Assembly: GCA_963739435.1 (NCBI GenBank)
Contig: CAVUAN010000007.1
Location: forward strand, 25,371-89,370
DNA length: 64,000 nucleotides
Direction: 5' to 3'
DNA from: an uncultured Acidobacteriota bacterium
GTDB lineage: Bacteria; Acidobacteriota; Thermoanaerobaculia; UBA5066; Gp7-AA6
Shown here: one piece after another, positions 3,377-51,750 of the stretch
Layout: each line of letters starts with the position of its first letter
Numbering within the stretch: position 1 is the first letter of the stretch
Notes under the pieces: model-generated
Databases searched by the model: none
Told to the model about the DNA's origin: nothing
The model's input: only the letters and a program-made list of their open reading frames with translations
Made by a program: the position numbers and the translations under genes

Positions 3377-3396
3377 GGCTCGGGCCAGCGGCTGGA

Positions 3397-32341: not shown

Positions 32342-32369
32342 CCGATCCCCGGGCAAGCTCGGGCGGGTC

Positions 32370-33717
32370 TTGATCGTCGAGGACGACGACTTCCTGCGCG
32401 ACCAGCTCACCTGGGCGCTCAAGGGGGACTTCGAGGTCGTGGGCGCGCGCGATGCGACCTCGGGACGAAAGGAGCTCTCCGGAGATGTTCGACGTCTACC
32501 TCTTCGACCTGAGGCTGCCCCCCTCGGGACAGGTGGAGGAAGGGCTCTCGCTGCTGGCGGAGGCGCGGAAGCGCGACGCGGATGCCACGGTCGTCATGAT
32601 GTCCGGGGAAGGGGAGCGGGCCCTGGCGCTGCGCGCGATCGAGGCCGGTGCCTTCGACTTTTTCCAGAAACCCGTCGACAAGGGGGAGCTGCGCGTCATC
32701 CTGGTGCGGGCGCTCGAACGGCGGCGGCTGCTCTCGGACAACCAGGCCCTGCGCCGCCCGTCCGCCGGGGAAGGGCCGCTCGCCCGGTTGATCGGCGAGA
32801 GCCCCCCGATGCAGCGCCTGCGAGCGGACATCGGGAAGGTGGCTCCCACCGACGCCTCGGTCCTGATCCTGGGGGAGAGCGGCACCGGAAAGGAACTGGT
32901 CGCCGGGTCGATCCACGCCGGCAGCCGCCGCTCCGTCGAGGCCTTCGTCGCCGTCAACGCCTCGGCGATGCCCGAATCGCTGGCGGAGGCTGAGCTTTTC
33001 GGCCACGAGAAGGGGGCCTTCACCGGCGCGATCGCTTCGAGGCCGGGCCGCTTCGAGATGGCCCACCGGGGCACCCTGTTCCTGGACGAGATCGGCACCC
33101 TCTCGGCGGGCATCCAGTCCAAGCTGTTGCGGGCGCTCGAGGAACGGGAAGTCGAGCGCGTCGGGGGGCGGCGGCCGATCCCGGTCGATTTTCGCCTCGT
33201 GTCGGCCACCAACGACGACCTCGAGGCCCGGATCGCGGCCGGGACCTTCCGCGAAGACCTCTTCTACCGGATCAACACGGTCGTCTTGTCGCTGCCGCCT
33301 CTTCGGGAGCGAAAGGGGGACCTGCCGCTTCTGGCGGCGCACTTCCTGTCGAAATTTGGAGAGCGGCATGGAAAGCCCGCCCGCCGCCTCTCGCCCGGTG
33401 TCCTCGAACGCCTCGAGGCCCACCCCTGGCGAGGCAACGTCCGGGAGCTCGAGCACGTCCTCGAGATGCTGGTTCTCTTTTCGGAAGGAGAGGAGATCGG
33501 CGAGGAGGACCTGCCGCGAGCGCTGCGGCGGCCCAACCACGCGTCAGCCGGCGCTGCGGGCCGGGGGTTGCCCTTCGGCAAGGCCGTCGAAGAGTTCGAA
33601 AAGGCTCTTCTCTCCGAAGCCATCGCCGCTTCAGCCGGCGTCAAAGCCGAAGCCGCCCGCCGCCTGGGCCTCGACGCGAACCAGATCAAGTACCTCTGCC
33701 GGAAATATGGGTTGTAG
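32370..33717 (+). CDS. Sigma54-dependent response regulator (NtrC family), 1 frameshift as assembled
   Basis: Receiver domain (IVEDDDFLRDQL ... FDLRLPP), AAA+ domain with GESGTGKE and the GAFTGA loop (EKGAFTGA), and a C-terminal HTH. The frame changes near 32480. The TTG 32370 start is provisional, since an ATG at 32338 overlaps the kinase stop in another frame. Confidence 0.85.
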
Positions 33718-33721
33718 TCGC

Positions 33722-33757
33722 GGTGAAAGATTCAACTGTCGGGTGAAACGTTCACCC
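33722..33757 (+). promoter_or_regulatory. Putative enhancer (UAS): two GGTGAA-N3-TTCAMC palindromes 20 bp apart
   Basis: GGTGAAAGATTCAAC (33722-33736) and the perfect palindrome GGGTGAAACGTTCACCC (33741-33757) lie 65-100 bp upstream of the sigma54 promoter. Confidence 0.55.
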
Positions 33758-33821
33758 GAGATCGGCCGGCGGAACTCGAAGAATCGCTCGAAAACACTGA
33801 GCTTTCCTCAAGTGAACGAGT

Positions 33822-33837
33822 TGGCTCGAGGCTTGCT
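33822..33837 (+). promoter_or_regulatory. Sigma54 (-24/-12) promoter TGGCTCGAGGCTTGCT
   Basis: One mismatch to TGGCACG-N4-TTGCW, with exact GG-N10-GC spacing. It lies 30 nt upstream of ATG 33868, which has SD AAAGGAGG. Confidence 0.75.
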
Positions 33838-33867
33838 CCTGAGGAAGGACAGAAAAGGAGGCCACAA

Positions 33868-34101
33868 ATGGCAAAGGAAGTCAGGATCAAGCTCACGGAA
33901 GCGCAGAGGTCGAAGATCAAGTCAGCCACGGGCAAGAACATGACGGAGATCCGGGTCACGAGCCTCGGAAAGGGTCCTGCGGCTAACGTCGCCTCGGCCC
34001 GCTCGGTTGCTCGTGGTGCTGCGCCTCGTCCGGTCGCCCGCGGCGCTCCAGGCCCGCGCCGGGAGCCCGCATGGCCACGTCGCGCCCTGTGGCACGCGTA
34101 A
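33868..34101 (+). CDS. Sigma54-driven small protein (77 aa; Lys-rich N-terminus, Arg/Ala/Pro-rich tail)
   Basis: It is the only ORF between the sigma54 promoter and the intrinsic terminator. Sequence starts MAKEVRIKLTEAQRSKIKSATGKNMTEIRVTSLGKG... RPVAR-like repeats continue in a second frame, so the 3' part may carry an indel. Confidence 0.55.
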   Translation: MAKEVRIKLTEAQRSKIKSATGKNMTEIRVTSLGKGPAANVASARSVARGAAPRPVARGAPGPRREPAWPRRALWHA

Positions 34102-34199
34102 CTACGGCGCGTGCGAGCCGGGCCATCGAAGCGAGTACACGCGGCCTCCTTCCGCGCCGACAACGACTCGAACTAGATCCCCGAGCTTCGATCTCTTGC

Positions 34200-34230
34200 A
34201 GCGCCCCGCTGGAAGCGGGGCGCTTTTTTC
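34200..34230 (+). terminator. Rho-independent terminator
   Basis: 10-bp stem AGCGCCCCGC/GCGGGGCGCT with loop TGGAA, followed by TTTTT. It abuts the stop of the convergent M50 gene. Confidence 0.85.
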
Positions 34231-36421
34231 TTACCAGAGGATGGTCTGAAACCAGCGGCGCAGGACGCGCGCGGAAAGAGCCGCGGGCGACGTTCTCGGC
34301 CCGTAGATCTTGGCCGTCACGAGCGCTCCCGGCCGGAGCTGGCGGTCGGAGTTTTCGAACTCCACCCGCACGACGAAGCGGTCGGGGAACTGGCCCGGCA
34401 CGAGCCTTTCAGTCAGCCCGGAAGCCGTGACGGGCTGATCTTCCGTGGCGGGTGCGATGCGGATGATCTTGCCCCGGACCGTTTTGCCTGGCCGCTCGGG
34501 AAGAAGAGCTGAGACCGGCGCGCCGACGAGAGGTCGTCCAGGCGCCGCTTCGGAGACCGGCAGGTCGGCGACGACCGTGCGGACGTCGCCCACCTCGGCC
34601 AGCAGTGCTCCGGCCTGGACGAAGCGGCCGTTCAGGTCCTGGATCCGGGGAGTCAGGATCTGCCCCTCGATCGGGCTTCGGACGTCCAGTCTCGTGCGCC
34701 GCATCTGGTCGCTCGCCAGGGCTGCGGATGCCGACGATTCGAGCGCGTCACTTTCACGGATCTTTTCGGGCGAAGCCTCCTGCCGGGCCGCGCTGGCTGC
34801 CTTGAGGAACCGCTCTCGCTGGGCATTGTCCCTGCCATGGAGTTGTCGGCTGCGGCGCTCGAGAGGCGGAAAAGCTCGGCTCCCTTCGCGACGTCCTGCG
34901 CCTCGGTGAACGGCCACCGCCGTGACGAATCCGTCCTCGGGGGCCTCGATACGGACGGTCTCGGCCGGCCGCAGGACGCCTTCGACCCACATGCGGCGTC
35001 GGGTCCAGGGAAGAAAAAGGACGAGCAGGATGAGGAGCGCGGCGGCGGCGAGAACGGGGCGGCTTCGTTTTGCCATGAGCAGGTCCCTCTTGTCCAGATA
35101 GAAGAGGCGGATCGTTTTGATGACGAGCTTGACCCGTTTCTTGAAGATGAATGCCAGCGTGAGAACGAGCAGAACACCCGCGAGATTCGGAAAGTACCTG
35201 GAGTAGAGGTTGTTGAAGAGCCCTCCGATGAACGACATGATGAACCCGATGTAGAGGAGGGCGGGGACGCCGTAGATCCAGTAGATCCGCCGGCGTCTTT
35301 TTGAGGCGACCGGGATGTCGACCGAGAGGCGCAGGACGTGCTTCTGGAATCGGGCGCCGATGTACCGGAACGACTCCTCGCGCAGCTCCGGGATCTCCAG
35401 GATGCTCGAGATGGCGTAGTAGCCGTCGATCTTGATCGAGCGGGTTGATGTTGAAAAAGATCGTCGAGACACCCGTAAAGAGCATCGTCTTGTAGGCGAT
35501 CTCGTGCAGGAGCGTGTCCGGGTAGCTGGCGACCCACAGAAACGTCGCGCCCGCACAGATGAATCCCTCGATGTAGATCCCGGCCGTCGTGACCCACAGG
35601 CGCTGCCACTTGCTCTGGAAGAGGATCGAATCGGTGGTGTCGCAGTAGAACGCCGGAGTGAAATAGAGGAGCGCGAGGCCGATGTCGTGCACCTCGCCGC
35701 CGTAGATCTTCGTGGCGTAGGCGTGGCCCATCTCGTGGATGAAGCCGACGATGCAGAGAAGGACGAAGAACTGGAGGGCGTCGACCAGCGGCTTGCGGAG
35801 GAACGCGTAGAGCTCGTAGGTCCCCGGCCAGATCGGCGCCCAGTGCTGGACGAAGACGCCCACGGTGAAGAGGGCCAGGACGGCCCAGAGACGACCATCG
35901 GCGGCGTCCAGATCCAGCGGACGTACTCGACGCTGCGGTTGAGCATTCGGTTCGGGTCGAAGACGTGGAACATGATGAAGAAGGGGTTGAAACCCTCCGC
36001 CTTTTCCTCGGCGGCCCGTTTCCGCGCCGTCTTGTAGTTGGCGAGAAGGACGAGGTTCCGCTCGGCGGCCCCGCGTTCGATCAGCTCGATCTTCCGGAGC
36101 ATCTCCTCGAAGTCGAGGATCAGCGAGTACGCGATCGGCTCGTCCGGAAAGGAGCTCTGGTACTCCTGCCAGATCTCGTTTCTCGTCCGCGTGCCGTCGA
36201 AGAGCTGGATGAAGTTCCACTCCGAATCGTCGAAGTAGTAGTACTTGAAGGTTTCCGGGTTCTTCACCACCCAGACGGGCTTCGCCCCCGTGGATCACGC
36301 GCCGGGCGACGATGTCCTTCCGCAGGGAGGGCCGTTCGTCGGGTGCGCCGTGCCGCTGGGCGAGCGCCCGTGTGCTGTCCCCGAGATCCGCGGCCGACGC
36401 GAGGCGCGTCGAGACAACCAT
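34231..36421 (-). pseudogene. PqqD/RRE-like domain + M50 (site-2-type) zinc metalloprotease + HlyD-like C-terminal domain; at least 5 frameshifts as assembled
   Basis: N-terminal VWVVKNPETFKYYYFDDSEWNFIQLFDGTRTRNEIWQEYQSSFPDEPIAYSLILDFEEMLRKIELIE fits the PqqD pattern. HEMGH zinc motif (FIHEMGHAYATKIYGG) within TM helices. The C-terminal IEGQILTPRIQDLNGRFVQAGALLAEV ... VTAKIYG is a barrel-sandwich domain. The pieces lie in ORFs 34754-38263, 34231-36270 and 34653-35609. Confidence 0.7.
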
Positions 36422-38868
36422 CAGGGAAGGAGCGGCCAGATCTTCGCCCAGATCCAGCGCGCAGGCTTGCGGACCAGGAGCGTTGCGATGTTGTGGTAGC
36501 CGACGCGGATCTTCGCCCGCCCGAGCATCCCGGTGCGCAGCTCTCCCGTGGGATTCGGCACGGCCACCTCGGCGATCACGAACCTCTCCTTGCCCTCTTC
36601 GAGGATCCGGGCGCCGACCCGCGCCACCTCTCCCTGGAGTGTGCGCGTCGGGAACGTGTTGAGCTTGACAGCCGCAGGCATTCCGGCGCGCACGAGTGAG
36701 GAATCCTGCCTCGTCCACGGCGACCTCGACGGTGACGTGATCCGAGAACTCGGCCACGACGCAGAACTCCGACCCTTTCGAAAGCACCTGTCCGACTTTC
36801 TCTTCGAGGCGCGGCGTGATGATGACGCCCGAAGTCGGCGCCCGGAGAGCCGTCCACGCCAGCGTCTGCTGCTCGAAAGCAACACGGGCGGCCGCCTCGT
36901 CGTGGCGCGACTGGGCCGCGAAGAGAGCGCCGGCGTCGGCAGCCTGCCGGGCCACGCGAGGTCCCGGTCGGAAACCTCGAGAGCGGCCTTCGCCTCGGCG
37001 AGGGCGGCGCGGAATGGCTGCTCTTCGATTTGAGCAATCCGGTCGCCGGCCTTCACCCGATCGCCCTCGCGGTGGTCGATCGAGACGACGATTCCGTCGA
37101 CGGCCGCCGCGACGACGCTCCGGCTGGCGGGGAGGACGCGCGCCGGCCCGCCGACGCGGAGACGCCAGGGGACGAGGAAGAGAACGATGAGCGCCGCGGC
37201 GACGCCGGTGACCCACCGGCGGCGGGCCCTCGCCGGCAGGTGCGCGAAGCGGCGCTGTCTCTCGAGCAGGGGCTTGAGAAATCCCGAGAGGGGGACCTGC
37301 TGGTAGAGCTGCGCGTTGCGGACGGCGACGGTCGCCTGGTTGACCAGGATCGCGAGCAGGTCGCGCGTCTCCTCGATCGAAGATGATCGGGCGCCTTGCT
37401 TTCGAATGCCGAGAACGCCGAGTTTGCCTTCCTCGTCCTTCAGGATCGCGCCGTAGACGGCGTTCAGTTGCCGCTTTCCGCGAAAAACGAGCGGAACTTC
37501 TCCTCCGTCTCGGGCCGATCGGTCGGCGAGCGTTCCGTCGGGCAGCTGAGTCACGCCGACGTCCGAGCCGCACAGGAAGACCCACTGGAGCAGCTCCTCG
37601 GTCCGCCGGACTTCCGCGGTCTTGCGATCCACATCGAGTCGAACCGGAGACAGCCCCGAGCCGCAGCTGGCCCCTTCTGAAAGACGGCGATCGACGCGCG
37701 GTCGTAGGTGATGAGGGCGGAGGCCGCCGTTGACGATGGCCTGCATGACCCGCTCGAGATCCAGGGTCGAGGTGATCTCGCGGCTGACGGCAAGCAGGGC
37801 GTCGAGCTCTTCGACCTTTTTCTCGGCCTCGTACCGGCGGGCGTTCCGGATGGCGCGGATGGCCTGGCGGGCGAGATCCTGGAGCAGCTCCTGGTCTTCC
37901 TCGGAGAACTCGGGGCGGCGCCCGCGCTTGTTGGCGACGATGATGGCGCCCTCGACCTCGTCCTCGTCGACTAGGGGCGCCGCGAGCAGCGACCGAACCG
38001 CGTAGCCCGGCTCCTCGCGTCGCCGCGGGGTCGTCCTCAGGCAGCCCGTTCTTGCGCACGGCGGCCCGGTCGGCGACGACCTCGCCGACGACGCTGGCTG
38101 CCCACGGCATCGGGCGGCATGTCGACCTCGTAGTTTTCGTTGACGACCGTGCGTGAGAGAACGACCTCTCCCGTCGTCTCGTCGAGGAACCAGAGCGAGC
38201 CGGTCTCTGCCGCCGTGAGGTCGACCGCCTTGCGCGCGATGATGTCGGAGAGAGCCGAGGCATCGAGCGTCGAGGCGAAGGCCTTCGAGAGGTCGTAGAG
38301 GTTCGTCAGCCGTTCGATGGCGTGCAGCATGCCGACGCTCTTGCGCTCGGCGCGGAGCGACCTGGCGAGCGCGCCGGCCGCCGTAGCGCGCCGGCGGGGC
38401 CGAGCCCCTCGATGGCGGCCTCCATCGCCGCCGGCTCCCGGTAGAAGAGGCCGAGCAGGAAGGAGACGCCGACTTCGGCTTCGAGCGGCAGCGCCAGCAA
38501 CGCGCCGGCCCAGTCCGGCGCGCCCGCCAGGAACGGGTCCTTCGAGCCGGAGAGCTCTTTGCGGTGGAACGCGATCGCCTCGCGGCCGCGCAGGAGCCGG
38601 AGGACGGCGCCTTCGTCGCGTCCGGCCGTGCGCCGCAGGAAGGGCCGCATCCCCGGTCCGTGGACGCCCGCGCAGAGGTAGACCGGGTTGGACGGGGTCG
38701 GGCGCCCAGACGACCGCCGCTTCGGCTCCCGCCGCCGGCCGAGCACCAGCGGGCCGCCCAGGCCGCTGTTTGGGCCAGGTTCTCGCAGGCAACGAGCTCC
38801 GCCAGGACGGCCGTCTCGAGGCCGCCGGGGGGCAGTATCGGAGTCCGACCGGTGGGTCGGTCTGCCAT
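36421..38868 (-). pseudogene. Three-GAF + TM + HlyD-like adaptor protein; about 10 frameshifts as assembled
   Basis: GAF-like blocks: ...GVSFLLGLFYREP...; LTNLYDLSKAFASTLDASALSDIIARKAVDLTAAETGSLWFLDE; LLAVSREITSTLDLERVMQAIVNGG ... VRNAQLYQQ. A TM segment (WVTGVAAALIVLFLV) follows, then VDGIVVSIDHREGDRVKAGDRIAQIE ... LRAPTSGVIITPRLEEKVGQ. The stop shares 1 nt with the M50 gene ATG. Confidence 0.65.
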
Positions 38869-38874
38869 AGCCTC

Positions 38875-39294: not shown

Positions 39295-40827
39295 ATGCCC
39301 GAGAGTAAGGCCGCGGCGGCCGAGCCGCCCGAGCGCGCCGGCGATCCCTGCACGGTCGTCATCTTTGGCGCCGCCGGCGATCTGACGCGGCGCAAGCTCG
39401 TTCCCGCCCTGCTCAACCTGCACGGCTACGGCCTCCTGCCGCGCGACTTTGCCGTCGTGGGGGTGGCCCGCAAGGAATTGTCCGACGAGGCTTTCCGCGA
39501 GCAGCAGACGAAGGACATACACGAGTTCGCGACGGTGAAGGTGGATGAGGCAACGTGGGCCCGGTTCCGTGAGCGCCTCTCCTACGTCCACGGCGAGTTC
39601 GGGGACCCTGCCGTCTACGCAAAGCTCGCGCCCCTTCTGGCCGATCTCGCCAGGCGATACGGCACGGGCGGCAACGTGCTGTTCTACCTCGCGACGCCTC
39701 CCCAATTCTTCGATGTCATCGTCGCGCAGCTCGGCGCGGCGGGCCTGACGCGCGAAGAGGGCGGCGCCTGGCGGCGCGTGATCATCGAGAAGCCCTTCGG
39801 GCGCGACCTCGACTCGGCCCGCCTGTTGAACGAGCAGATTCGTTCGGTCTTGAAGGAGAGCCAGATCTACCGGATCGACCACTACCTCGGCAAAGAGACC
39901 GTGCAGAACCTCATGGTCTTCCGTTTCGCCAACGGTCTCTTCGAGCCGGTCTGGAACCGCCGCTACGTCGACCACGTCCAGATCACGGTGGCCGAGACCG
40001 TGGGGGCAGAGGGCCGGGGCGCCTACTACGACTCGGCCGGCGTCCTGCGCGACATGATGCAGAACCACATGTTCCAGCTTCTGGCGTTGATCGCGATGGA
40101 GCCGCCGATCTCCTTCGAAGGCGAGGCCGCGCGCAACGAGAAGGTCAAGGTCCTCCAGGCCATCCGGCCGATGGGTCCGGAGGAGATCCTGAAGAATGCG
40201 GTGCGCGGGCAGTACGGCGAGGGGCTCATGGATGGCAAGAAAGTCCCCGGCTACCGTTCCGAGCCCAACGTCGCTCCAGGCTCGAAGACCGAGACGTTCG
40301 CCGCTGTCGAGCTCGGTGTCGAGAACTGGCGCTGGGCTGGCGTGCCGTTCTTCCTGCGCTCGGGCAAGAGGCTGGCGCGCCGCAGCACCCAGATCGTCAT
40401 TCAGTTCCGCAAACCGCCCCTGCTCTTGTTCCCCCGCGCAGCCGTGGGGGAGATCGAGGCCAATCGGCTGACCATCCAGATCCAGCCCGACGAGGGCATC
40501 AAGATCGCCATGAAGGCCAAGCGCTCGGGCCCCACGATCCGCCTTCGGGATGTGGAGCTGGCGTTCAACTACGCCGATGGCGGCGACGAAGAGCACGCCA
40601 CCGGCTACGAGCGGCTGCTGTACGACTGCATGTCGGGCGATTCGACCCTTTTCCACAGGGCCGACATGGTCGAGGCGGCCTGGACGATTGCAACGCCGAT
40701 TCTCGACCTCTGGGCGAGCCTCCCGGCGCGGGACTTTCCCAACTACGCGGCCGGGAGCTGGGGGCCCGCGTCAGCCGATGCCCTCATGTCCCGCCACGGC
40801 TACGCCTGGACGAACCCGGAGAAGTAA
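39295..40827 (+). CDS. zwf: Glucose-6-phosphate 1-dehydrogenase
   Basis: GAAGDLTRRKL NADP site and RIDHYLGKE active-site motif. 510 aa, intact. An alternative ATG lies at 39259. Confidence 0.9.
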   Translation: MPESKAAAAEPPERAGDPCTVVIFGAAGDLTRRKLVPALLNLHGYGLLPRDFAVVGVARKELSDEAFREQQTKDIHEFATVKVDEATWARFRERLSYVHGEFGDPAVYAKLAPLLADLARRYGTGGNVLFYLATPPQFFDVIVAQLGAAGLTREEGGAWRRVIIEKPFGRDLDSARLLNEQIRSVLKESQIYRIDHYLGKETVQNLMVFRFANGLFEPVWNRRYVDHVQITVAETVGAEGRGAYYDSAGVLRDMMQNHMFQLLALIAMEPPISFEGEAARNEKVKVLQAIRPMGPEEILKNAVRGQYGEGLMDGKKVPGYRSEPNVAPGSKTETFAAVELGVENWRWAGVPFFLRSGKRLARRSTQIVIQFRKPPLLLFPRAAVGEIEANRLTIQIQPDEGIKIAMKAKRSGPTIRLRDVELAFNYADGGDEEHATGYERLLYDCMSGDSTLFHRADMVEAAWTIATPILDLWASLPARDFPNYAAGSWGPASADALMSRHGYAWTNPEK

Positions 40828-41076
40828 GGCTGGGTCTCTCCGGCATAGATGTACATTTTTTTGGACAGATTCTAAAGATCTCGTCAGGATCGCATCCGCC
40901 CGCAGCGGTTCCCACGTACCTTGCCTGTGATCAGGGGAGCGGAATAGAATCCCCGCCACTTTCTGATTCCGTGGCATATCGTTGCGGCGTCAAGATGCAC
41001 TCGACCCAGTGCGGCCATACCGGCCGGACTTTTTTGTGAACACCCCCTTTTGCGGGGGGAAGAAGGAGTGAGGGGT

Positions 41077-41499
41077 ATGACGAAGGGGGATCTCACGAAG
41101 AAGGCGATCGGTCTGGCGATTGCCGGGGTGTTCGCGGGCTCGCGTCTCGCGTCGGCGGCGACGCAGGCGACGTCCACGGGCAAGACCGAAGGCGCCAAGC
41201 CGGTGGCCGGCGACGAAAAGACCAAGGACACGAAGGCCGCGTCGGACAAGAATGTCTGCAAGGGCATGAACTCCTGTAAGGGCAAGGGCGGCTGCAAGAC
41301 GGGCGACGGCGGCTGCTCGGGCAAGAACTCGTGCAAGGGCAAGGGCGGCTGCGCCTCGGCCGATGTGAAGCACGACTGCAAGGGCATGAACTCCTGCAAG
41401 GGGCAGGGCGGCTGCAAGACCGGCGACGGGAAATGCGCTGGCAAGAACTCCTGCAAGGGCAAGGGCGGCTGCGCGGTTCCGGTCAAGAAGGCTGCGTAA
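41077..41499 (+). CDS. bufA: Bufferin-type RiPP precursor, 12-Cys class (Sec signal + 2 x 32-aa 6-Cys modules)
   Basis: SD GAAGGAG and ATG 41077. Signal peptide MTKGDLTKKAIGLAIAGVFAGSRLASA. Modules CKGMNSCKGKGGCKTGDGGCSGKNSCKGKGGC (nt 41257-41352) and CKGMNSCKGQGGCKTGDGKCAGKNSCKGKGGC (nt 41377-41472). It sits directly upstream of DUF692 and DUF2063 genes. Confidence 0.75.
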   Translation: MTKGDLTKKAIGLAIAGVFAGSRLASAATQATSTGKTEGAKPVAGDEKTKDTKAASDKNVCKGMNSCKGKGGCKTGDGGCSGKNSCKGKGGCASADVKHDCKGMNSCKGQGGCKTGDGKCAGKNSCKGKGGCAVPVKKAA

Positions 41500-41519
41500 C
41501 TCTTCCAGGTGGTTACTCT

Positions 41520-41553
41520 GGGGGCTGCGGCGGTTGCCGCGGCCCCCTTTTTT
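41520..41553 (+). terminator. Strong intrinsic terminator between precursor and modification genes
   Basis: 12-bp stem GGGGGCTGCGGC/GCCGCGGCCCCC (one G-U pair) with loop GGTT, followed by TTTTTT. Confidence 0.85.
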
Positions 41554-41576
41554 CACTTTAGACTCTCGACCTGGTC

Positions 41577-42434
41577 ATGACTAACCGCTGGAACTTTCCG
41601 GATCTCGGCGTCGGCGTCGGCCTGCGCACGGTCCACTACCCGCACATCCTCGAGAAGAAGCCGCGGGTCGACTTCTTCGAGATCCTCTCCGAGAACTACA
41701 TGAACACGGGCGGCCGGCCCCTCTGGGTTCTCGACCAGGTCGCCGAGCGCTACCCGATCGTGATGCACGGGGTCTCGCTCTCGATTGGCAGCGTCGACCC
41801 GCTGAACAAGGAACACCTTTCGAAGCTGAAGAAGCTCGCCGCGCGCACGAAGGCGCTCTGGGTCTCCGACCATCTCTGCTGGACGGGTGTCGCAGGCCGG
41901 AACACGCACGACCTCCTGCCGATGCCCCTGTCGGAGGAGGCCCTCGAGCATGTCGTCGCGCGGGTCAAGACGGTCTCCGACTACCTCGAGCGGCCCCTGA
42001 TCCTCGAGAACGCCTCGACATACGCCGAGTTCACGACCTCGAGCATGACCGAATGGGATTTCTTCGCGCGCCTCATGAAGGAGGCCGACTGCGGAATGCT
42101 GCTCGACGTCAACAACGTGTACGTCAGCTCCTACAACCACGGCTTCGATCCGATCGCATACCTCGATGCCGTGCCTCCGGACCGTGTCGTGCAGTACCAC
42201 CTCGCCGGCCACACCAACAAGGGCACCCACATCATCGATACGCACAACAACTTCGTGATCGACGAGGTCTGGAAGCTCTATGCCCACTCGGTCAAGCGCA
42301 CGGGCAACGTGGCGACGCTGCTCGAGTGGGACGCCGACATTCCCGACTTCGAAGTGGTCCACGCCGAGGCGCTGAAAGCCCGCGCGTACCGCGACGAGAA
42401 GGCAAAGCCGCTCCGTGCCGCAAAAAGCGCCTGA
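41577..42434 (+). CDS. bufB: DUF692/MbnB-like multinuclear non-heme iron oxidase (MNIO)
   Basis: 285 aa with family segments [35 protein letters not shown] and YHLAGHTN. Confidence 0.8.
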   Translation: MTNRWNFPDLGVGVGLRTVHYPHILEKKPRVDFFEILSENYMNTGGRPLWVLDQVAERYPIVMHGVSLSIGSVDPLNKEHLSKLKKLAARTKALWVSDHLCWTGVAGRNTHDLLPMPLSEEALEHVVARVKTVSDYLERPLILENASTYAEFTTSSMTEWDFFARLMKEADCGMLLDVNNVYVSSYNHGFDPIAYLDAVPPDRVVQYHLAGHTNKGTHIIDTHNNFVIDEVWKLYAHSVKRTGNVATLLEWDADIPDFEVVHAEALKARAYRDEKAKPLRAAKSA

Positions 42435-43272
42435 CTCGAACGTGAGGCGGCTGCCCCTGGGCCACCTCCAGCACTGGATGCAGGCGGTCGTCGAGACGCC
42501 CGGCCCGGCCGAAGATGCCGTCGCTGCCCCCGCTGCCGCGAAAATCGTCCCGCCCGACCGCGTGGGCGACGTCGTGCTCGCGTCGAAGACGCTGACGCCG
42601 GTCGAGCGCGTGGGTGTCTACCAGGGCATGTACATCATGCGGATGGTCGAGGCCCTGCAAGGCGACTACCCGGCCGTGTCGCACTTCCTGGGCGACCACC
42701 AGCTCGAGCACGTCGTCGAGGACTACGCCGCGGCGCATCCTTCCGTGAGCTACAGCTTCAATCCCTTCGGCCGGCATTTCCCCAAGTTCCTGCGCACCTC
42801 CTCGCGCATCCGCCGCAAGGCCTTCCTCTACGACCTCGCGCGCCTCGAGCTGGCCGTGACGGAAGTCTTCGACGCGCCCGAGTCCCCAAAGCTCTCGCCG
42901 GAGGACGTCGCGAAGATCCCCGAGTCCGCATGGCCGAAAGCGCGCCTGAAGCCGATCGAGGCCTTCCGCGTCCTCAGCTTCGACCACAACGTCAACGCCT
43001 ACCTCCAGTCGGTCAAGGAAGGCTCGGAGGACCACCCCGAGATCCGCCGGAAGCAGTCCTGGGTTGTCGTCTGGCGCAAGAACTACGAAGTCTGGCGCCT
43101 CGACCTCGGCCGCCCCGCCTTCGATTTCCTAAACGCCCTCTCCAAGGGCCGCCCCTTCGGCAAGGCAGTCTCAGAGTCCGCCCGCAAACTCCAGGGCAGC
43201 GCAGGCGAACAACTCTTCCGCTGGCTAAGAGCCTGGGTCGGGGAAGGCATGTTCCAGTCCGTCGAGCTCTAG
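42075..43272 (+). repeat. Direct repeat copy A (3' 360 nt of bufB plus all of bufC)
   Basis: Repeated at offset +1961 (44036-45236). The copies are near-identical at the 5' side and diverge toward the 3' end. Confidence 0.9.
42415..43272 (+). CDS. bufC: DUF2063 partner protein (BufC-like)
   Basis: Overlaps bufB by 20 nt. Contains [21 protein letters not shown]...[19 protein letters not shown], typical of DUF2063. An alternative GTG start lies near 42442. Confidence 0.75.
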   Translation: MPQKAPDSNVRRLPLGHLQHWMQAVVETPGPAEDAVAAPAAAKIVPPDRVGDVVLASKTLTPVERVGVYQGMYIMRMVEALQGDYPAVSHFLGDHQLEHVVEDYAAAHPSVSYSFNPFGRHFPKFLRTSSRIRRKAFLYDLARLELAVTEVFDAPESPKLSPEDVAKIPESAWPKARLKPIEAFRVLSFDHNVNAYLQSVKEGSEDHPEIRRKQSWVVVWRKNYEVWRLDLGRPAFDFLNALSKGRPFGKAVSESARKLQGSAGEQLFRWLRAWVGEGMFQSVEL

Positions 43273-43276
43273 GTCT

Positions 43277-43310
43277 CCCTCTCCCCCCGGGAGAGGGCAG
43301 GGGTGAGGGG
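43277..43310 (+). repeat. REP-like element, copy 3 (2 mismatches to the 61-94 core)
   Basis: CCCTCTCCCCCCGGGAGAGGGCAGGGGTGAGGGG, starting 5 nt after the bufC stop. Confidence 0.8.
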
Positions 43311-43362
43311 GAATCTGACGCCTTGCCTCACATTGATGGTAGAATGCCATCGGAGTGATGCA

Positions 43363-43602
43363 ATGCCCAAGACGCTCACGGTCCGAATGGACGATGCGAC
43401 CTACAGCCTGATCGCCGAAGCGGCCGAGGCCGACAACCGGTCCGTTTCGAACTTCATCGAGACGGCGGCTCGCGAGAAAGCCATGGCGGAGGCTTTCGTC
43501 CCAGATGAGGAGATGGTTGACATTCGGGCAGACCGGGCGCTCGTGAGGAGCCTCAAGCGCGGGCACCAGGACGCCGCGAAGCGGCGCGGCCGGTTTGTCT
43601 GA
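43363..43602 (+). CDS. Ribbon-helix-helix (CopG-like) antitoxin
   Basis: 79 aa. MPKTLTVRMDDATYSLIAEAAEADNRSVSNFIETAAREK shows the RHH pattern. An extended -10 (TGGTAGAAT) lies about 20 nt upstream, and the gene overlaps the toxin gene by 8 nt. Confidence 0.75.
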   Translation: MPKTLTVRMDDATYSLIAEAAEADNRSVSNFIETAAREKAMAEAFVPDEEMVDIRADRALVRSLKRGHQDAAKRRGRFV

Positions 43603-43876
43603 GTACCGGCTCTTCGAGACCGAAAACTTCCAGCGCGACCTGGCCCGCCTCGGCCCGACAGCGGCAAAACGGATTCGGACAAGGCTGCAGGATCGCGCGT
43701 ACCCGGCTCTGCGCGCGGCGCCCAGGCAGGTTCCGTCCGCCGCCCGTTTGAAAGACTGGGACCCGCCTACCTGGCGTCTCCGTATCGGCTCCTACAGGCT
43801 CTTCTACAGGATCGACGATGAGGAGCGCGTGGTCTGGCTCATCAGCGTCTCCGACCGCAAGGACGCCTACAGGTAG
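43595..43876 (+). CDS. RelE/ParE-family toxin
   Basis: 93 aa. Sequence ...WRLRIGSYRLFYRIDDEERVVWLISVSDRKDAY is typical of RelE/ParE. Confidence 0.8.
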   Translation: MSEYRLFETENFQRDLARLGPTAAKRIRTRLQDRAYPALRAAPRQVPSAARLKDWDPPTWRLRIGSYRLFYRIDDEERVVWLISVSDRKDAYR

Positions 43877-44035
43877 GTGTCTCGGGTCCGACTTTCGGGT
43901 AAAGCCGGGTCGCGTTAGCAACGTGATGACCGAGATCCAAGAGAACGGGGCGCTAGTGCGCCACATCGACCGTTGCGCCACCGTTGCGCCACAGGCTTGG
44001 TCATAGTATATAATATAGACCTGACCCCGACCAAC

Positions 44036-44395
44036 ATGAAGGAGGCCGACTGCGGAATGCTGCTCGACGTCAACAACGTGTACGTCAGCTCCTACAACCA
44101 TGACTTCGATCCGATCGCATACCTCGATGCCGTGCCTCCGGACCGTGTCGTGCAGTACCACCTCGCCGGCCACACCAACAAGGGCACCCACATCATTGAT
44201 ACGCACAACAACTTCGTGATCGACGAGGTCTGGAAGCTCTATGCCCACTCGGTCAAGCGCACGGGCAACGTGGCGACGCTGCTCGAGTGGGACGCCGACA
44301 TTCCCGACTTCGAAGTGGTCCACGCCGAGGCGCTGAAAGCCCGCGCGTACCGCGACGAGAAGGCAAAGCCGCTCCGTGCCGCAAAAAGCGCCTGA
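44036..44395 (+). pseudogene. 5'-truncated DUF692/bufB copy (C-terminal 119 codons only)
   Basis: Corresponds to bufB residues 167-285 with one substitution (G to D). Homology begins exactly at an internal ATG. The N-terminal 166 residues are absent. Confidence 0.85.
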
Positions 44396-45236
44396 CTCGA
44401 ACGTGAGGCGGCTGCCCCTGGGCCACCTCCAGCACTGGATGCAGGCGGTCGTCGAGACGCCCGGCCCGGCCGAAGATGCCGTCGCTGCCCCCGCTGCCGC
44501 GAAAATCGTCCCGCCCGACCGCGTGGGCGACGTCGTGCTCGCGTCGAAGACGCTGACGCCGGTCGAGCGCGTGGGTGTCTACCAGGGCATGTACATCATG
44601 CGGATGGTCGAGGCCCTGCAAGGCGACTACCCGGCCGTGTCGCACTTCCTGGGCGACCACCAGCTCGAGCACGTCGTCGAGGACTACGCCGCGGCGCATC
44701 CTTCCGTGAGCTACAGCTTCAATCCCTTCGGCCGGCATTTCCCCAAGTTCCTGCGCACCTCCTCGCGGATCCGCCGCAAGGCCTTCCTCTACGACCTCGC
44801 GCGCCTCGAGCTGGCCGTGACGGAAGTCTTCGACGCGCCCGAGTCCCCAAAGCTCTCGCCGGAGGACGTCGCGAAGATCCCCGAGTCCGCCTGGCCGAAA
44901 GCGCGCCTGAAGCCGATCGAGGCCTTCCGCGTCCTCAGCTTCGATCACAACGTCAACGCCTACCTTCAGTCGGTCAAAGAAGGCTCGGAGGACCATCCCG
45001 AGATCCGCCGAAAGAAGACTTGGGTAGCTATCTGGCGCAAGAACTACGAAGTCTGGCGCCTCGACCTAGGCGGCCCCGCCTTCGACTTCCTCCAAGCTCT
45101 CTCGAAGGGCCGTCCCTTCGGCAAAGCCGTCTCAGAATCCGCCCGCAAACTCCAGGGCAACCCCGGCGAGCAACTCTTCCGCTGGCTAAGAGCCTGGGTC
45201 TCCGAAGGAATGTTCCAGGCCGTCGAGAAAGGGTAG
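44376..45236 (+). CDS. Second DUF2063 (BufC-like) copy, full length
   Basis: 286 aa, identical to copy 1 through residue 213. After that there are 11 substitutions plus 1 extra residue in the tail. Confidence 0.8.
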
Positions 45237-45242
45237 GCGGGC

Positions 45243-46349
45243 CTACTGCTCCTGGAAGTACCCGTGGAGGTCTCGTAGCGCTTGCTTGTCGATCTGCCGG
45301 CGCCGCAGCGACTCGCGCAGGAGCGACAACGCCGCGATCCCCTCCGGCACCATCTTCTCCTCGTCGATGATCGGCAGAGCAGCTCGGATCTCCCACTCGC
45401 CTTGGGCCTCCTGGCCTGCTTCCAGCAAGAGATCGGCGACCACGAGGTGGAGCGCAGCCAGATCGCCGCGTAGGCCGATTTCGCGAGCTTCTGCCTGCGC
45501 TTGGCGGTAAGCATCGAGTGCAGCCACTCGCTTGCCTTGCTTTCGGAGGAGATCGCCGATGCTCCACTGGAGCTTGGCAAAACCGATACGGTCGTTCAGC
45601 TGCTTTTGTAGGGGGAGGGCTTTCTTCGCAAAGTGAAGCGCGTTCTTCTCATCGCCAAGGATCGCGTAGTAACGGACGAGGTTGTTCGCCGCCTGCGCTA
45701 CAAGGCGCGTGATTCCAAGGCTCTCAGCCTCTCGGCAAATGGCCGTGAATACCTCGATCGCCTTTTCGAGCTGTCCCAACTCACAATAGACGATGCCCTG
45801 AAGGAAACGGCATTTGAGTGCGTCTTCGCGCATGTCGAGTTGCTCAAAGGTCTCTACCCACATCGGCGATAGCTCGAGGACCTCTTCCAGCTGTCTTTCC
45901 TCGAGGAGCAACGCAAGACGCTGATAGCCAACCCGCGCCCAATGAGCATTCGCGTTCTGGACGAGGGAGAAGCTCGCCTCTGCACGCTGGAGCCAGATCT
46001 TTGCGTCCTGGATCCGAAAGAGAAATCGGCTAGACGCCGCAGCAAGCAGGGCCAGCTCACCCAGAAAATACTCTCGCTCGTCGTGGAGGCCGATGGATCG
46101 CTTCGGCTCACGGAGAAAGCCAAAAAAGAAAGCGGCTTCATCGCGGACGGAAGTGGGGTCCGCTTCTAGGCGGGAGCGAAGAATCTCGCACACGCACAAG
46201 AGCAACTCGGGATCCTCGAGATGGAGCTCTTGAGTCTTTCCTGTTCGCTCAGGGAGCGGGATCGAAAGGGCTCTCTCGGCGGCGGCACGGCTCTCCTCGT
46301 AGTGGAGATACTTCGGTCGCCAAGGAAACTGGACGACGTTGCTGCTCAA
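45243..46349 (-). CDS. TPR-repeat protein (368 aa) in a lower-GC island
   Basis: Repeated A/L/Y-rich helix pairs (e.g. LQGIVYCELGQLEKAIEVFTAICREAE, NNLVRYYAILGDEKNALHFAKKAL). GC is visibly lower than in the flanks. Confidence 0.65.
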   Translation of the reverse strand: MSSNVVQFPWRPKYLHYEESRAAAERALSIPLPERTGKTQELHLEDPELLLCVCEILRSRLEADPTSVRDEAAFFFGFLREPKRSIGLHDEREYFLGELALLAAASSRFLFRIQDAKIWLQRAEASFSLVQNANAHWARVGYQRLALLLEERQLEEVLELSPMWVETFEQLDMREDALKCRFLQGIVYCELGQLEKAIEVFTAICREAESLGITRLVAQAANNLVRYYAILGDEKNALHFAKKALPLQKQLNDRIGFAKLQWSIGDLLRKQGKRVAALDAYRQAQAEAREIGLRGDLAALHLVVADLLLEAGQEAQGEWEIRAALPIIDEEKMVPEGIAALSLLRESLRRRQIDKQALRDLHGYFQEQ

Positions 46350-46717
46350 GTGTCGCGTTCCTTATCCCGTTTCTCTAGGTTCTCAAGAAGCTCCCTCGCA
46401 ATGACCTCTGGACCCAGTGCTAGGGATCGTTCGCGAACGTCCGGAGTCGAAACAAGTTCATCGAACTGAGCGGAGGAATACACATGGCCCGCGCGACAAG
46501 CCATCATGATCAAATCGGGGCGGAGCGTGCTTACGGGTCTTGCGCTGCCTGGTCGGCGCGCATACCGGCGGAACCAGTCTAGGAGTCCCTGCTCAACCTT
46601 GGTGGCGTCCTCACGGGGCACACCGTAGAGCGATAAGAGAGCCGTGTCGATAGTCTCCAGCGCCCGTGCAAAAACTAGCGCGATCTCTTCGTCACGGTTC
46701 ACGGGCCGGCTCGACAT
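46346..46717 (-). CDS. Hypothetical protein (123 aa), possibly sigma-factor region-2-like
   Basis: 4-nt overlap with the TPR gene. The segment REDATKVEQGLLDWFRRYARR weakly resembles ECF sigma region 2. No region 4 is present. Confidence 0.45.
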   Translation of the reverse strand: MSSRPVNRDEEIALVFARALETIDTALLSLYGVPREDATKVEQGLLDWFRRYARRPGSARPVSTLRPDLIMMACRAGHVYSSAQFDELVSTPDVRERSLALGPEVIARELLENLEKRDKERDT

Positions 46718-46817
46718 GCAAACTTTTTAGACCTCGGAAGAAGAGTAAGGATACACCCGCTTCCATTCAGCGATGCAGAAACCGTTCGAGCCCTCACAGG
46801 ACAAAGGGTTTAGTTTA

Positions 46818-46943
46818 TTAGCCAGGGATTTGGCTGGCGATCTTGATCGTGAACGGCTTAGTCCGCGGCGCCGGTTGGGGCTGCGGTTGGGCCGTCTCGA
46901 TCTTTTGGGGCTCGATCCGGGCGGACTGCGTGGTCGGGGGCAT
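46818..46943 (-). CDS. Possible small ORF (41 aa, MPPTTQSARIEPQKIETAQPQPQPAPRTKPFTIKIASQIPG)
   Basis: Not in the ORF track because it is under 60 aa. A strong SD AAAGGAGA lies 6 nt before ATG 46943, and the ORF ends in tandem TAA TAA. It has the same orientation as the 123-aa/TPR pair and lies about 100 nt upstream of it. Confidence 0.3.
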   Translation of the reverse strand: MPPTTQSARIEPQKIETAQPQPQPAPRTKPFTIKIASQIPG

Positions 46944-47059
46944 GACGAATCTCCTTTCACCAAAACAGAAAGCTCGCGCCTGCGAGTAAGTTGAATCGAT
47001 CCAAACTATACGCCCGTTGAACGGGACGGTGTCAAGATGCGCTGGCAGGTGGAGGCTCC

Positions 47060-49022
47060 TTGGCCGAAGTGACTGATTTGACAGGGGAAAGGCGTCTGGA
47101 ATGGCTGGAGGCGGACGGCCTGGGAGGCTTTTCCTCCGGGACCGCGTCCGGAGCCCGGACGCGGCGTTACCACGCGCTGCTCCTGACGGCGACAGAACCG
47201 CCGACGGGGCGCTTCGTTCTCGTCAACGGGTTCGAGGCGTGGGTCGAGACACCGGAGGGCCGCTTCGCTATTTCTACGCAGCGCTACGTCCCCGATGTCA
47301 CGTATCCAGACGGCGCAAAGCGCATCGCGAGCTTCACGACATCGCCGTGGCCGCGCTGGACGTTTACGTTGGAGGACGGCACGTCGATCGAGCAGGAGAT
47401 CTTCGTGCCGCACGACATTTCCGCCTGCGTCGTGACGTGGCGGCTCAAATCCAGAATCGAGAATCCAAAAGCCAAGGTCTCTCTGTTCGTTCGCCCCCTC
47501 CTCTCCGGTCGCGACTACCACGCCCTGCACCACGAGAACGCGTCGTTCCGCATGGAGGCCGAGGATCTCGGCGGCCCTCTTCGCTTCCGCCCCTACGACA
47601 GCGTGCCCGGTGTCGTCGTTCGCTGCAACGCGACCGCCTACGATCACGACCCGAAGTGGTACCGCAGCTTTCTGTACGAGGAAGAGCAGGCGCGCGGCCT
47701 CGACTTCTCGGAGGACCTCGCCTCGCCCGGCACGTTTCGATTCGATTTGACCAGGGAAGAAGCAGTCTGGACGCTTTCTGCCGAGGGGCACGAGAGCTCT
47801 TTCGGCCCGGGCGATGCACCGACCTTCGTGAAGGCGCTGCGCGCCGCGGAGATCGCGCGGCGCGGGCGCTTCGCCGATCGCCTCGAGCGCGCTGGCGACG
47901 CGTATCTCGCGCGGCGCGGCGAGGGCAAGACGATCCTGGCCGGCTATCCGTGGTTCAGCGACTGGGGTCGCGACACGTTCATCTCGCTGCGGGGCTTGTG
48001 TCTCGCCACGGGACGCCTGGAGGAAGCCGGCCAGATCCTCCTCGAATGGGCGGGCGCGGTCTCGCAGGGGATGTTGCCGAATCGTTTTCCGGATCGCGGG
48101 CAGGAGCCGGAGTTCAATGCCGTCGACGCGTCGCTCTGGTTCATCGTCGCCGTCCACGAATGGCGCGAGGCCATGCACGCCGAGCGCCGTACTGTTCCGC
48201 TCGAAGACGGCAAGCGCCTCGACGCCGCTGTCCACGCCATCCTGACCGGCTACACCTCGGGCACGCGCTTCCGCATCCGCGCCGACGTGGACGGTCTGCT
48301 CTTCGCGGGAGAGCCCGGTGTGCAGCTCACGTGGATGGACGCGAAAGTCGGAGATTGGGTCGTCACGCCGCGCATCGGTAAGCCCGTCGAAGTCCAGGCC
48401 CTGTGGTTGAACGCCCTGAAGATCGGCGGGCTACGGACCTTCCGCTGGAATGCTCTCTTCGAGCACGGCCTGTCCACATTCCGCCGGCGCTTCTGGAACG
48501 AGGAGGGCGGCTATCTCTATGACGTCGTCGACCCCGACCGCCGGGAGGGCGAGGCCGATCCGACCTTCCGGCCCAACCAGATCTTCGCGGTCGGCGGTCT
48601 GCCGTTCCCGCTGCTGGAGGCCGCGGCGGCACGCCGTGTCGTCGATGCGGTGGAGGAGAAGCTGTGGACGCCGCTCGGCCTGCGAACGCTGGCGCCCGGC
48701 CATCCGGACTACCATGCGCGCTATGCGGGGGGTGTGCTCGATCGGGACGGCGCCTATCACCAGGGCACGGCCTGGCCGTGGCTCCTGGGTCCCTTTGTCG
48801 AGGCGTGGGTTCGCGTCCGGAGCGGCACGTCGAAGGCAAAGCGGGAGGCGCGGCAGAAGTTCCTGGAGCCGCTCCTCACGCATCTCGACGAGGCCGGCAT
48901 CGGCCACCTGCCCGAGGTCGCCGACGGGGACCCGCCGCATCGCCCGGGCGGCTGCCCGTTCCAGGCCTGGTCGGTGGGTGAGGCCTTGAGGCTCGATCGC
49001 GTGGTCCTTTCGGAGCCGAACC

Positions 49023-49033
<11 letters not shown>
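47060..49033 (+). CDS. Glycogen debranching enzyme (amylo-alpha-1,6-glucosidase, GDE_C type)
   Basis: 657 aa, intact. Contains [13 protein letters not shown]...[23 protein letters not shown] and [15 protein letters not shown]. Confidence 0.8.

Positions 49034-51750
<2,717 letters not shown>

Follow-up and report, generated by a model that had tools for sequence, protein, structure and literature searches.

Introduction

Bufferins are made from precursors with Sec signal peptides, in which an MNIO enzyme and a DUF2063 partner turn cysteines into 5-thiooxazoles, and the products chelate periplasmic copper (PMC11626156). The second-largest group of bufferin precursors, BUF_6/12Cys, was founded by Caulobacter BufA2, which belongs to a buf2ABC operon without a DoxX gene (PMC11626156). 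Caulobacter Buf2 loses 18 Da, with -4.03 Da at each of its four central cysteines and a probable disulfide between CysI and CysVI; copper induces it, whereas Fe, Zn and Mn do not, and it gives protection against copper (PMC11626156). The product class of the MNIO-PME1 pairs has since been renamed captophorins, with the BufA2-like peptides as a Cys-Lys group apart from the EGKCG Lys-Cys group (PMC13097082). Here we describe three genes on the forward strand of a 64,000-nt stretch of DNA from an uncultured Acidobacteriota bacterium (GenBank assembly GCA_963739435.1, contig CAVUAN010000007.1, positions 25,371 to 89,370; hereafter the window, in whose own coordinates all positions are given). A first-pass annotation of the window had proposed a bufferin-type gene cluster for a RiPP (a peptide made by the ribosome and modified after translation). 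Our analysis makes it highly probable that bufA (41077-41499), bufB (41577-42434) and bufC (42415-43272) are a functional operon, bufABC, of the bufferin-2 type (Buf_6/12Cys, Cys-Lys captophorin) for a two-domain, copper-chelating periplasmic peptide.

The enzymes and the precursor

The two downstream genes had been read as a DUF692/MbnB-like enzyme and an overlapping DUF2063 gene, and profile searches bore this out. BufB, an MNIO (DUF692) bufferin maturase of 285 aa, matched Pfam MbnB_TglH_ChrH with E 6e-110 and NCBIfam MNIO_BufB (NF050167) with 364.3 bits at a curated equivalog cutoff of 310. It stayed under the cutoffs for HvfB (267.4 against 360), MbnB TIGR04159 (55.7 against 325), ApyH and ChrH. 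The nearest solved structure was 3BWW (E 3e-49), whose protein is counted among the MNIOs that work with PME1 (DUF2063) partners (PMC13097082). BufC, also of 285 aa, is a DUF2063 partner of the PME1 type (59.7 bits against the Pfam DUF2063 cutoff of 27.2), and its reading frame overlaps that of bufB by 20 nt. As shown by an alignment of 18 homologues, BufB keeps His64, Asp98/His99, Glu144, Asp177, Asn180, His208/His212, Asp221/His223 and Glu250, all of them at invariant or nearly invariant positions. We take the conserved His, Asp and Glu positions to be the iron ligands.

bufA encodes a Buf2-type precursor of 140 aa with 12 cysteines, from an ATG at 41077 to a stop codon at 41497-41499. Its Shine-Dalgarno sequence AAGGAG has the GGAG at 41065-41068, 8 nt upstream of the ATG. 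The architecture proposed in the first-pass annotation, namely a signal peptide, a Lys/Thr-rich spacer and two 32-aa modules of six cysteines each at a period of 40 aa, was confirmed, with the signal peptide as a heuristic call. The predicted signal peptide (41077-41157) has an n-region charged by Lys3, Lys8 and Lys9, a 12-residue hydrophobic core, AIGLAIAGVFAG, with a Kyte-Doolittle 11-mer maximum of 2.4, and Ala25-Ser26-Ala27 directly before Ala28, so that the N-terminus looks like a Sec/signal peptidase I signal with a cleavage site between ASA and A. Motif inspection of the N-terminus found neither a twin-arginine pair nor a lipobox Cys. The spacer that follows is rich in Lys, Thr and Ala and leads to module 1 (41257-41352, residues 61-92; CKGMNSCKGKGGCKTGDGGCSGKNSCKGKGGC) and module 2 (41377-41472, residues 101-132; CKGMNSCKGQGGCKTGDGKCAGKNSCKGKGGC). 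Both modules have a cysteine spacing of 6-6-7-6-6, and each consists of two copies of a 13-aa unit, C-x-G-x-N-S-C-K-G-x-G-G-C. The predicted mature peptide has 113 aa, 10.9 kDa and a pI of 9.4, with 24 Gly, 23 Lys and the 12 Cys. When all six frames of the window were scanned, the motif C.G.N.C.G.G.C occurred four times, always in bufA, and the scan gave no other candidate substrate of BufB and BufC near the cluster.

A profile check of the precursor, suggested together with the first-pass claims, had a mixed outcome: the BufA2 profile NF050166 matched two stretches of BufA (E 2.4e-14), but the score of 53.3 bits is under the curated whole-protein cutoff of 60. In the Pfam profile search no DUF2282 match was found for BufA. 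The database held 3978 homologues at E <= 1e-3, of which the best, from metagenomes, were 88-89% identical. In a 58-sequence alignment, each of the 12 cysteines was either invariant or conserved at 90% or more, and so were, without exception or nearly so, the Asn and Gly residues of the CxGxNxCKGxGGC motif. Codon 59 of bufA (41251-41253) is Asn at a position where at least 90% of the 58 homologues have His (K-H-x-C before module 1), and His99 before module 2 is kept. If the His before a module contributes to metal binding, the two domains may be non-equivalent.

Relatives and module number

In order to place the cluster among its relatives, loci (numbered L001 onwards) were collected by a BufB genome scan, which gave 80 loci, and from 12 metagenome contigs, and 94 loci were fetched in all. 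The best genome-level relatives of BufB were 75-82% identical and were all metagenome-assembled genomes (MAGs) labelled Thermoanaerobaculia or Acidobacteriota, followed by Vicinamibacteria, Terriglobia, Planctomycetota and Polyangiaceae. By this ranking the window belongs to an acidobacterial genome, probably of the Thermoanaerobaculia, whose species is absent from the representative genomes, and exact-sequence look-ups of BufB and BufA returned no record. The order bufA-bufB-bufC was kept in about 80 genomes and the 12 metagenome contigs, across phyla, and the closest relatives had the wider order glucose-6-phosphate dehydrogenase (G6PD)-bufABC-...-glycogen-debranching enzyme (GDE)-...-DoxX. 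Taken together, the profile matches, the roughly 4000 precursor homologues, the conserved order and the published descriptions (PMC11626156, PMC12452194) uphold the claim of a bufferin-type RiPP cluster of the 6/12-Cys class.

The cluster had also been put in a barely explored 12-Cys class. The membership stood, and the 12-Cys form is not rare around this enzyme clade. Published 12-Cys Buf2 precursors have been modelled as duplicated domains and make up about 10% of Buf2 (PMC12452194). Among the 120 best BufA hits, in contrast, 99 had two canonical modules, 14 had one, 6 had three and 1 had four. We then scored the best neighbouring precursor at 79 loci of the BufB genome scan, and found two canonical modules at 33, one at 15, three at 4 and five at 1, with non-canonical spacing at the remaining 26. 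Around this BufB clade, precursors most often have the 12-Cys layout, and module number is plastic in these precursors (1, 2, 3 and up to 5). A relative with a BufB 77% identical (L009) has a single-module, 6-Cys precursor at 3235-3522 of its locus, shorter by exactly one 40-aa period, and other relatives have 3 to 5 modules (L047, L018).

We also looked at the age of the internal duplication. Module identity between proteins was 0.80 for M1-M1, 0.81 for M2-M2 and 0.79 for M1-M2, and within one protein 0.82; the module-by-module comparison is nearly uninformative on this question. Position 10, however, is consistently Lys or Gln in module 1 and Gln, Leu or Met in module 2, and the linker A-x-x-x-K-H-x-C is conserved across phyla. 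These two features suggest that the two-module layout is old and shared among the relatives, and therefore not recent in this genome. At the DNA level the modules form a repeat in bufA (41248-41354 / 41368-41474, period 120 nt), whose 87% identity reflects constraint on low-complexity sequence.

A side observation concerns the start of related Buf2-type precursors. A twin-arginine (Tat)-like motif, R-R-x-[F/L], as in MKRRDFTKA or MDRREFTKI, begins 47 of the 120 best precursor hits and the precursors at 38 of the 79 genome loci (proteins P0037, P0060, P0068, P0113 and others; loci L013-L082), where the present clade has KKGDL or TKGDL. The main texts of two bufferin papers name Sec signal peptides only (PMC11626156, PMC12452194). 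Tat export of a cytoplasmically modified peptide is plausible for these related precursors.

Leader and hairpins

Upstream of bufA, a promoter-like site, TTGCCT-18-TAGAAT, may be placed at 40921-40950 on the forward strand. Its -10-like box TAnAAT (40945-40950), about 125 nt upstream of bufA, was conserved in 20 of 20 close relatives. A site that by eye resembles a sigma-54 promoter, at about 40972-40986 (TGGCAT-N5-TTGC), was rejected, as its GG-to-GC spacing is one base short of the consensus and the site is not conserved across relatives.

Two hairpins follow in the leader, both on the forward strand. The first (41008-41030, to 41035 with a U6 run) pairs AGT-G-CGGCC with GGCCG-G-ACU around an AUACC loop, and a terminator search listed it as terminator-like. 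Over the 20 relatives, compensatory changes occurred in 6 of its 10 pairs and the loop context C-C-A-U-n-n-C-G-G was invariant; the covariation score was 0.317 compared with 0.181 in column shuffles, of which 0 of 500 reached it, and slid partners gave at most 0.13. A run of U6-7 after the hairpin was present only in the window, L001, L002 and L094, and absent from the other relatives. The second hairpin (41043-41059, to 41068 with the Shine-Dalgarno sequence) pairs C5 with G5-6 and abuts AAGGAG, and such a C-run/G-run hairpin next to the Shine-Dalgarno sequence was common to the 20 close relatives. A covariance model of the leader (R1), run over 1.44 Mb of related loci, found nothing beyond its 20 source sequences, and the element lay upstream of bufA only. 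A scan of 40000-47500 against Rfam gave a chance-level hit only (BjrC68, at 17 bits; gathering score 39). The bufA leader is a clade-specific conserved structure, and neither the related loci nor Rfam gave evidence of a wider RNA family or regulon.

Between bufA and bufB lies an intrinsic-terminator-like hairpin of 12 bp, 11 of them G-C (41520-41547, with T6 to 41553, forward strand). The first-pass annotation had called it strong and unusual. It is strong, with a folding energy of -40.1 kcal/mol and a z-score of -5.2, but it is not unusual, since a GC-rich hairpin of different sequence stood at the same position after bufA in 18 of 18 relatives folded. Most simply, it would act as a partial terminator or an RNA-stabilising stem that gives more precursor than enzyme.

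Neighbourhood and the duplicated tail

The absence of an adjacent DoxX gene had been noted as a peculiarity of the cluster. The absence is real: the only DoxX gene of the window (51773-52237) lies 8.5 kb downstream, past two carbohydrate genes, a glycogen-debranching gene (47060-49033) and then a GH63/MGH1-like gene. It is normal for Buf2, because Caulobacter buf2 has no DoxX gene, DoxX is dispensable for the modification and function of Buf1 (PMC11626156), and bufABC is without an adjacent DoxX gene in all close relatives. In five relatives (L005, L006, L009, L010, L090) DoxX had the same position downstream of the debranching gene. The best NCBIfam hit of the window's DoxX was the HvfX family of Cu-RiPP maturation, with 70.6 bits at a cutoff of 80; the distant gene could be a displaced bufD, or its position could be just conserved synteny. 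The surroundings of the buf genes also include G6PD, carbohydrate enzymes, a STAS protein and a GAF-HlyD protein.

The reading frames of the buf genes are intact. Elsewhere in the window, between 32 and 39 kb, at least 7 changes of frame occur in orthologues of genes that are intact in L001. Compared with intact L001 and L002, the changes at 32350-38870 number at least 4 in the 805-aa GAF-HlyD gene, 2 in an M50-like gene and 1 in a sigma-54 activator gene. The GH63/MGH1-like glycosidase is split into two open reading frames (ORFs; 49023-51750), and two loci from long-read MAGs (L004, L011) have similar splits in the GDE gene. This pattern suggests assembly indel errors, or else pseudogenes.

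The tail of the cluster is duplicated, which the first-pass annotation had rightly regarded as unusual. The segment 42074-43266, from bufB codon 167 to the gene's end plus bufC to its last codons, is repeated at 44035-45227; the two copies align along 1193 nt, free of indels and with 38 mismatches, and such a partial bufB-bufC repeat was absent in 94 of 94 related loci fetched. Of the cluster's features, the duplicated tail alone is particular to this genome. A second MNIO/DUF2063 pair upstream of the cluster in L003, L041 and L094 is 45-52% identical to BufB and is not a partial repeat. The identity is mosaic, with 4 mismatches in the first 856 nt and 34 in the last 337 nt. The truncated bufB' (44035-44395, in a listed ORF of 43973-44395, forward strand) covers codons 167-285 only, and its product is presumed not to be an active MNIO because His64, His99 and Glu144 are missing. 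bufC' (44376-45236, forward strand) is an intact second DUF2063 gene of 286 aa. Over the first 170 codons it is nearly identical to bufC and over the last 114 it has diverged, with a dS of 0.35 and a dN/dS of 0.14, and therefore both versions of bufC appear to have evolved as working genes; a spare partner protein may still be made from bufC'.

At their 3' ends, copy 1, copy 2 and the nearest strain (L083) differ from one another to about the same extent (9.5-11%), and an outgroup comparison of the bufC 3' ends gave a near-even split that favoured neither copy as native. That copy 1 is the resident gene is mildly favoured by the REP-like element after it, which matches the context in L094 and L084. 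An old duplication with its 5' part homogenised by gene conversion is a possible origin of the repeat, as is an allele acquired from a sister lineage. Contig ends also fall near this place in relatives. The short-read contig of L083 starts 12 nt ahead of the repeat's exact left boundary (L083 1-12 against window 42063-42074), and the contigs of L001 and L002 end inside bufB. These ends could be repeat-induced breaks in relatives with a similar duplication, or a coincidence.

In most relatives bufC stands nearly directly before the debranching gene (L005, L009, L010, L088, L089, L090), and in the nearest lineage of the window this gap holds variable cargo. The order in the window is bufC, a REP-like element, an RHH/ParE pair, a junction, bufB'-bufC', a TPR gene, a 123-aa ORF (orf123) and the debranching gene at 47060. 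The palindromic REP-like element (43275-43310, forward strand; CTCCCTCTCCCCCCGGGAGAGGGCAGGGGTGAGGGGG) directly follows bufC, as it does in L094 and L084, three genomes in all. Further intergenic copies lie at 59-94 and 3832-3865 (reverse) of the window, and the copies in L094 and L084 at 6846-6879 and 2511-2543. The segment 43363-43876 on the forward strand is, judged by family and layout, a type II toxin-antitoxin pair of the RHH/ParE type, with an RHH antitoxin (43363-43602) and a ParE/RelE-family toxin (43595-43876) that overlap by 8 nt. The scores were 44.9 bits for ParE_toxin (cutoff 23), 25.6 for a TacA1-like match (cutoff 21) and 20.4 for RHH_1 (cutoff 20.5). An orthologous pair lies downstream of bufC in L094, with a ParE 70% identical to that of the window. 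The junction (43877-44034) is a unique segment of 158 nt with an AT-rich near-palindrome, GGTCATAGTATATAATATAGACC, and matched nothing in the fetched loci or in the rest of the window. On the reverse strand, the TPR gene (45243-46349) and orf123 (46346-46717) have a lower GC content of 57-59%, compared with 66% overall, and orthologues of both occupy the same place in L094 and L083.

The gap in L094 holds the REP-like element, MazE/MazF, a CMD-family gene, RHH/ParE, two TPR genes, a Sigma70_r2 gene and the orf123 orthologue. The L083 gap, from bufC to the TPR gene, holds a PIN-domain gene, presumably a toxin, and a small overlapping ORF without a family hit. No similarity was detected between orf123 and the L094 Sigma70_r2 protein, whose gene adjoins a paralogous TPR gene. 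A PADLOC scan for defence systems returned nothing meaningful for the toxin-antitoxin pair, the TPR protein or orf123. The duplicated tail is a local rearrangement in a toxin-antitoxin-rich spot, rather than a new system.

Discussion

Our reading of the locus as a working bufferin-2 operon builds on what was observed here: intact genes of identified families, the layout of the precursor, a gene order kept among relatives, and the conserved hairpins and motifs. Where the mechanism concerns chemistry, export, the metal or what the terminator does, we infer it from the family. Transcription of bufA would start at a promoter about 125 nt upstream and run through the structured leader. Most transcripts would end at the hairpin after bufA, so that the cell would make more precursor than enzyme, with read-through supplying bufB and bufC, whose overlapping frames suggest translational coupling. 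In the cytoplasm, the multi-iron oxidase BufB and BufC, a DUF2063 partner with a RiPP recognition element (RRE), would use O2 to convert cysteines of the precursor to 5-thiooxazoles. By analogy with Caulobacter Buf2, the four central cysteines of each module would be modified, and the first and last would form a disulfide after export. The predicted product would carry 8 thiooxazoles and 2 disulfides, with a total change of about -36 Da. Sec would export the peptide and signal peptidase I would cut it after Ala27, and the released basic, Gly/Lys-rich two-domain peptide (113 aa, about 10.9 kDa) would chelate excess periplasmic copper. The bufB'-bufC' segment would be a by-product of rearrangement in the toxin-antitoxin-rich spot downstream of bufC.

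Several observations weigh against this reading. The whole-protein BufA2 score is below the curated cutoff (53.3 against 60 bits). BufC is far under the cutoff of the NCBIfam HvfC equivalog (46.5 against 142 bits), as expected for a non-Hvf subfamily. The signal peptide was called heuristically only, and the near-invariant His59 before module 1 is Asn in BufA. An AlphaFold2 model of BufA built on the 58-sequence alignment was uninformative (mean predicted local distance difference test score, pLDDT, 48; predicted template modelling score, pTM, 0.16) and lends no support to the two-domain fold or the disulfide geometry. The level of bufBC expression is uncertain, because bufB has no obvious Shine-Dalgarno sequence and starts 23 nt past a strong terminator. 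Nothing in the window ties the cluster to copper, and the many frameshifts in other genes of the window show that the sequence quality is imperfect.

The missing link to copper bears directly on whether the two-domain thiooxazole peptide might serve another metal or stress (Hg, Au, Cd, Zn, Ni, oxidative or sulfur stress), or act as a store or chaperone and not as a buffer. Neither cop/cus genes nor SigF/NrsF regulators were found near the cluster in the window, where the neighbours of bufABC are G6PD, glycogen-debranching and glycosidase genes; sigma/anti-sigma genes were likewise not found in Buf2 clusters generally (PMC12452194). MerC-Buf2 fusions occur in mercury-detoxification clusters and roles with other metals have been suggested (PMC12452194), and bufferin clusters were first noticed as gold-induced genes (PMC11626156). 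Yet the sole Buf2 studied experimentally, that of Caulobacter, responds to copper among the metals tried and protects against it (PMC11626156), and the literature describes the other characterised thiooxazole peptides as copper binders or metallophores (PMC11252979, PMC13097082). We regard such another function as unlikely, although it deserves more weight than the remaining alternatives. It is very improbable that the precursor is an unmodified Cys-rich periplasmic metal binder, metallothionein-like with thiolates and disulfides, with bufBC acting elsewhere or idle. Many bufferin precursor genes are indeed unlinked to MNIO genes and possibly unmodified (PMC12452194), and bufA and bufB, with a strong terminator between them, could be largely uncoupled in expression. 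Against this stand the tight gene order across phyla, the full set of conserved His, Asp and Glu positions in BufB and the lack of an alternative substrate candidate nearby; moreover, both bufferins studied are modified in vivo and their function requires bufB and bufC (PMC11626156).

The duplicated tail and the leader invite two further explanations. The tail (44035-45236) could be an artefact of assembly, such as the joining of sequence from two co-existing strains. The window resembles an error-prone metagenome assembly, with its frame changes and split glycosidase gene; the 10% difference between the 3' parts of the two copies is similar to that of either copy from another strain (L083); and no other locus has the duplication. 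However, the copies are separated by 768 nt of unique sequence, including a toxin-antitoxin pair with a counterpart downstream of bufC in L094, the junction is a clean single-base one with no indel in 1193 nt, and the reading frames of both copies are open and under purifying selection. Strain chimeras, moreover, normally switch haplotype and do not build a tandem with a new mid-gene junction. An artefact of this kind therefore seems improbable to us. In a different direction, the leader hairpins might be a clade-specific cis-regulatory RNA, an attenuator or a ligand or protein site, that switches the bufferin on under metal stress and replaces SigF/NrsF control, with bufC', under purifying selection, as a second substrate-recognition partner; we hold this combined proposal to be doubtful.

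With the bufferin-2 operon as the preferred reading, the cluster is an ordinary member of a catalogued family, and the current understanding of that family is unchanged. What it adds is a well-supported Acidobacteriota (Thermoanaerobaculia-like) example of bufferin-2, and the finding that two-module 12-Cys precursors are the rule, not the exception, around this enzyme clade. In the cited bufferin literature the 12-Cys bufferins are without experimental characterisation, and that of the window is a reasonable first candidate. If tested, a 12-Cys representative could show if modification is complete in both domains (predicted -36 Da) and if the copper capacity is doubled. Small leads are the covarying leader hairpin, the twin-arginine motifs in related precursors and the toxin-antitoxin-rich rearrangement hotspot beside the cluster.

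Comparison with known systems

Among the comparable systems, methanobactin MbnBC shares an MNIO superfamily enzyme and a copper-binding, Cys-derived peptide. It differs in its MbnC partner, in its short leader-dependent precursors without a signal peptide, in its oxazolone/thioamide chemistry and in its product, a secreted chalkophore. The HvfABC-type systems of oxazolin, fontiphorin and gonophorin share an MNIO, a DUF2063 partner and a Cys-rich precursor; they bind copper via 5-thiooxazoles and an HvfX/DoxX gene is often present (PMC11252979, PMC13097082). Their repeat is the 5-mer EGKCG, with Lys before Cys, whereas that of the window is CKG, and no EGKCG repeat was found in BufA. FonBC, moreover, did not process Cys-Lys substrates (PMC13097082). 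Bufferin 1 (DUF2282, buf1ABCD) has the same enzyme pair, and from the family the thiooxazole chemistry, Sec export and copper buffering would extend to the window; it differs in its own precursor, a 4-Cys DUF2282 protein, in the DoxX gene (bufD) within its cluster and in its SigF/NrsF regulators.

The closest experimental counterpart is buf2ABC of Caulobacter vibrioides (CCNA_02999-03001). Both clusters consist of a precursor with a signal peptide, an MNIO and a DUF2063 gene without DoxX, both precursors have a 6-Cys module with Cys-Lys-Gly motifs, and both enzymes match the same MNIO_BufB model. In contrast to the single module of Caulobacter, the precursor of the window has two 6-Cys modules (12 Cys), with Asn in place of the His before module 1. 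The host is an acidobacterium and not an alphaproteobacterium, the cluster has no known SigF-type control, and a partial bufB'-bufC' copy lies downstream. In precursor layout a match is found in the published 12-Cys Buf2 precursors, known from bioinformatics (e.g. WP_077285100 of Cognaticolwellia aestuarii; PMC12452194), which likewise have duplicated 6-Cys domains, a signal peptide and linkage to MNIO and DUF2063 genes. They differ in frequency: the double module is the minority form of Buf2 in that survey, and the commonest form, at 33 of 79 loci, around the BufB of the window.

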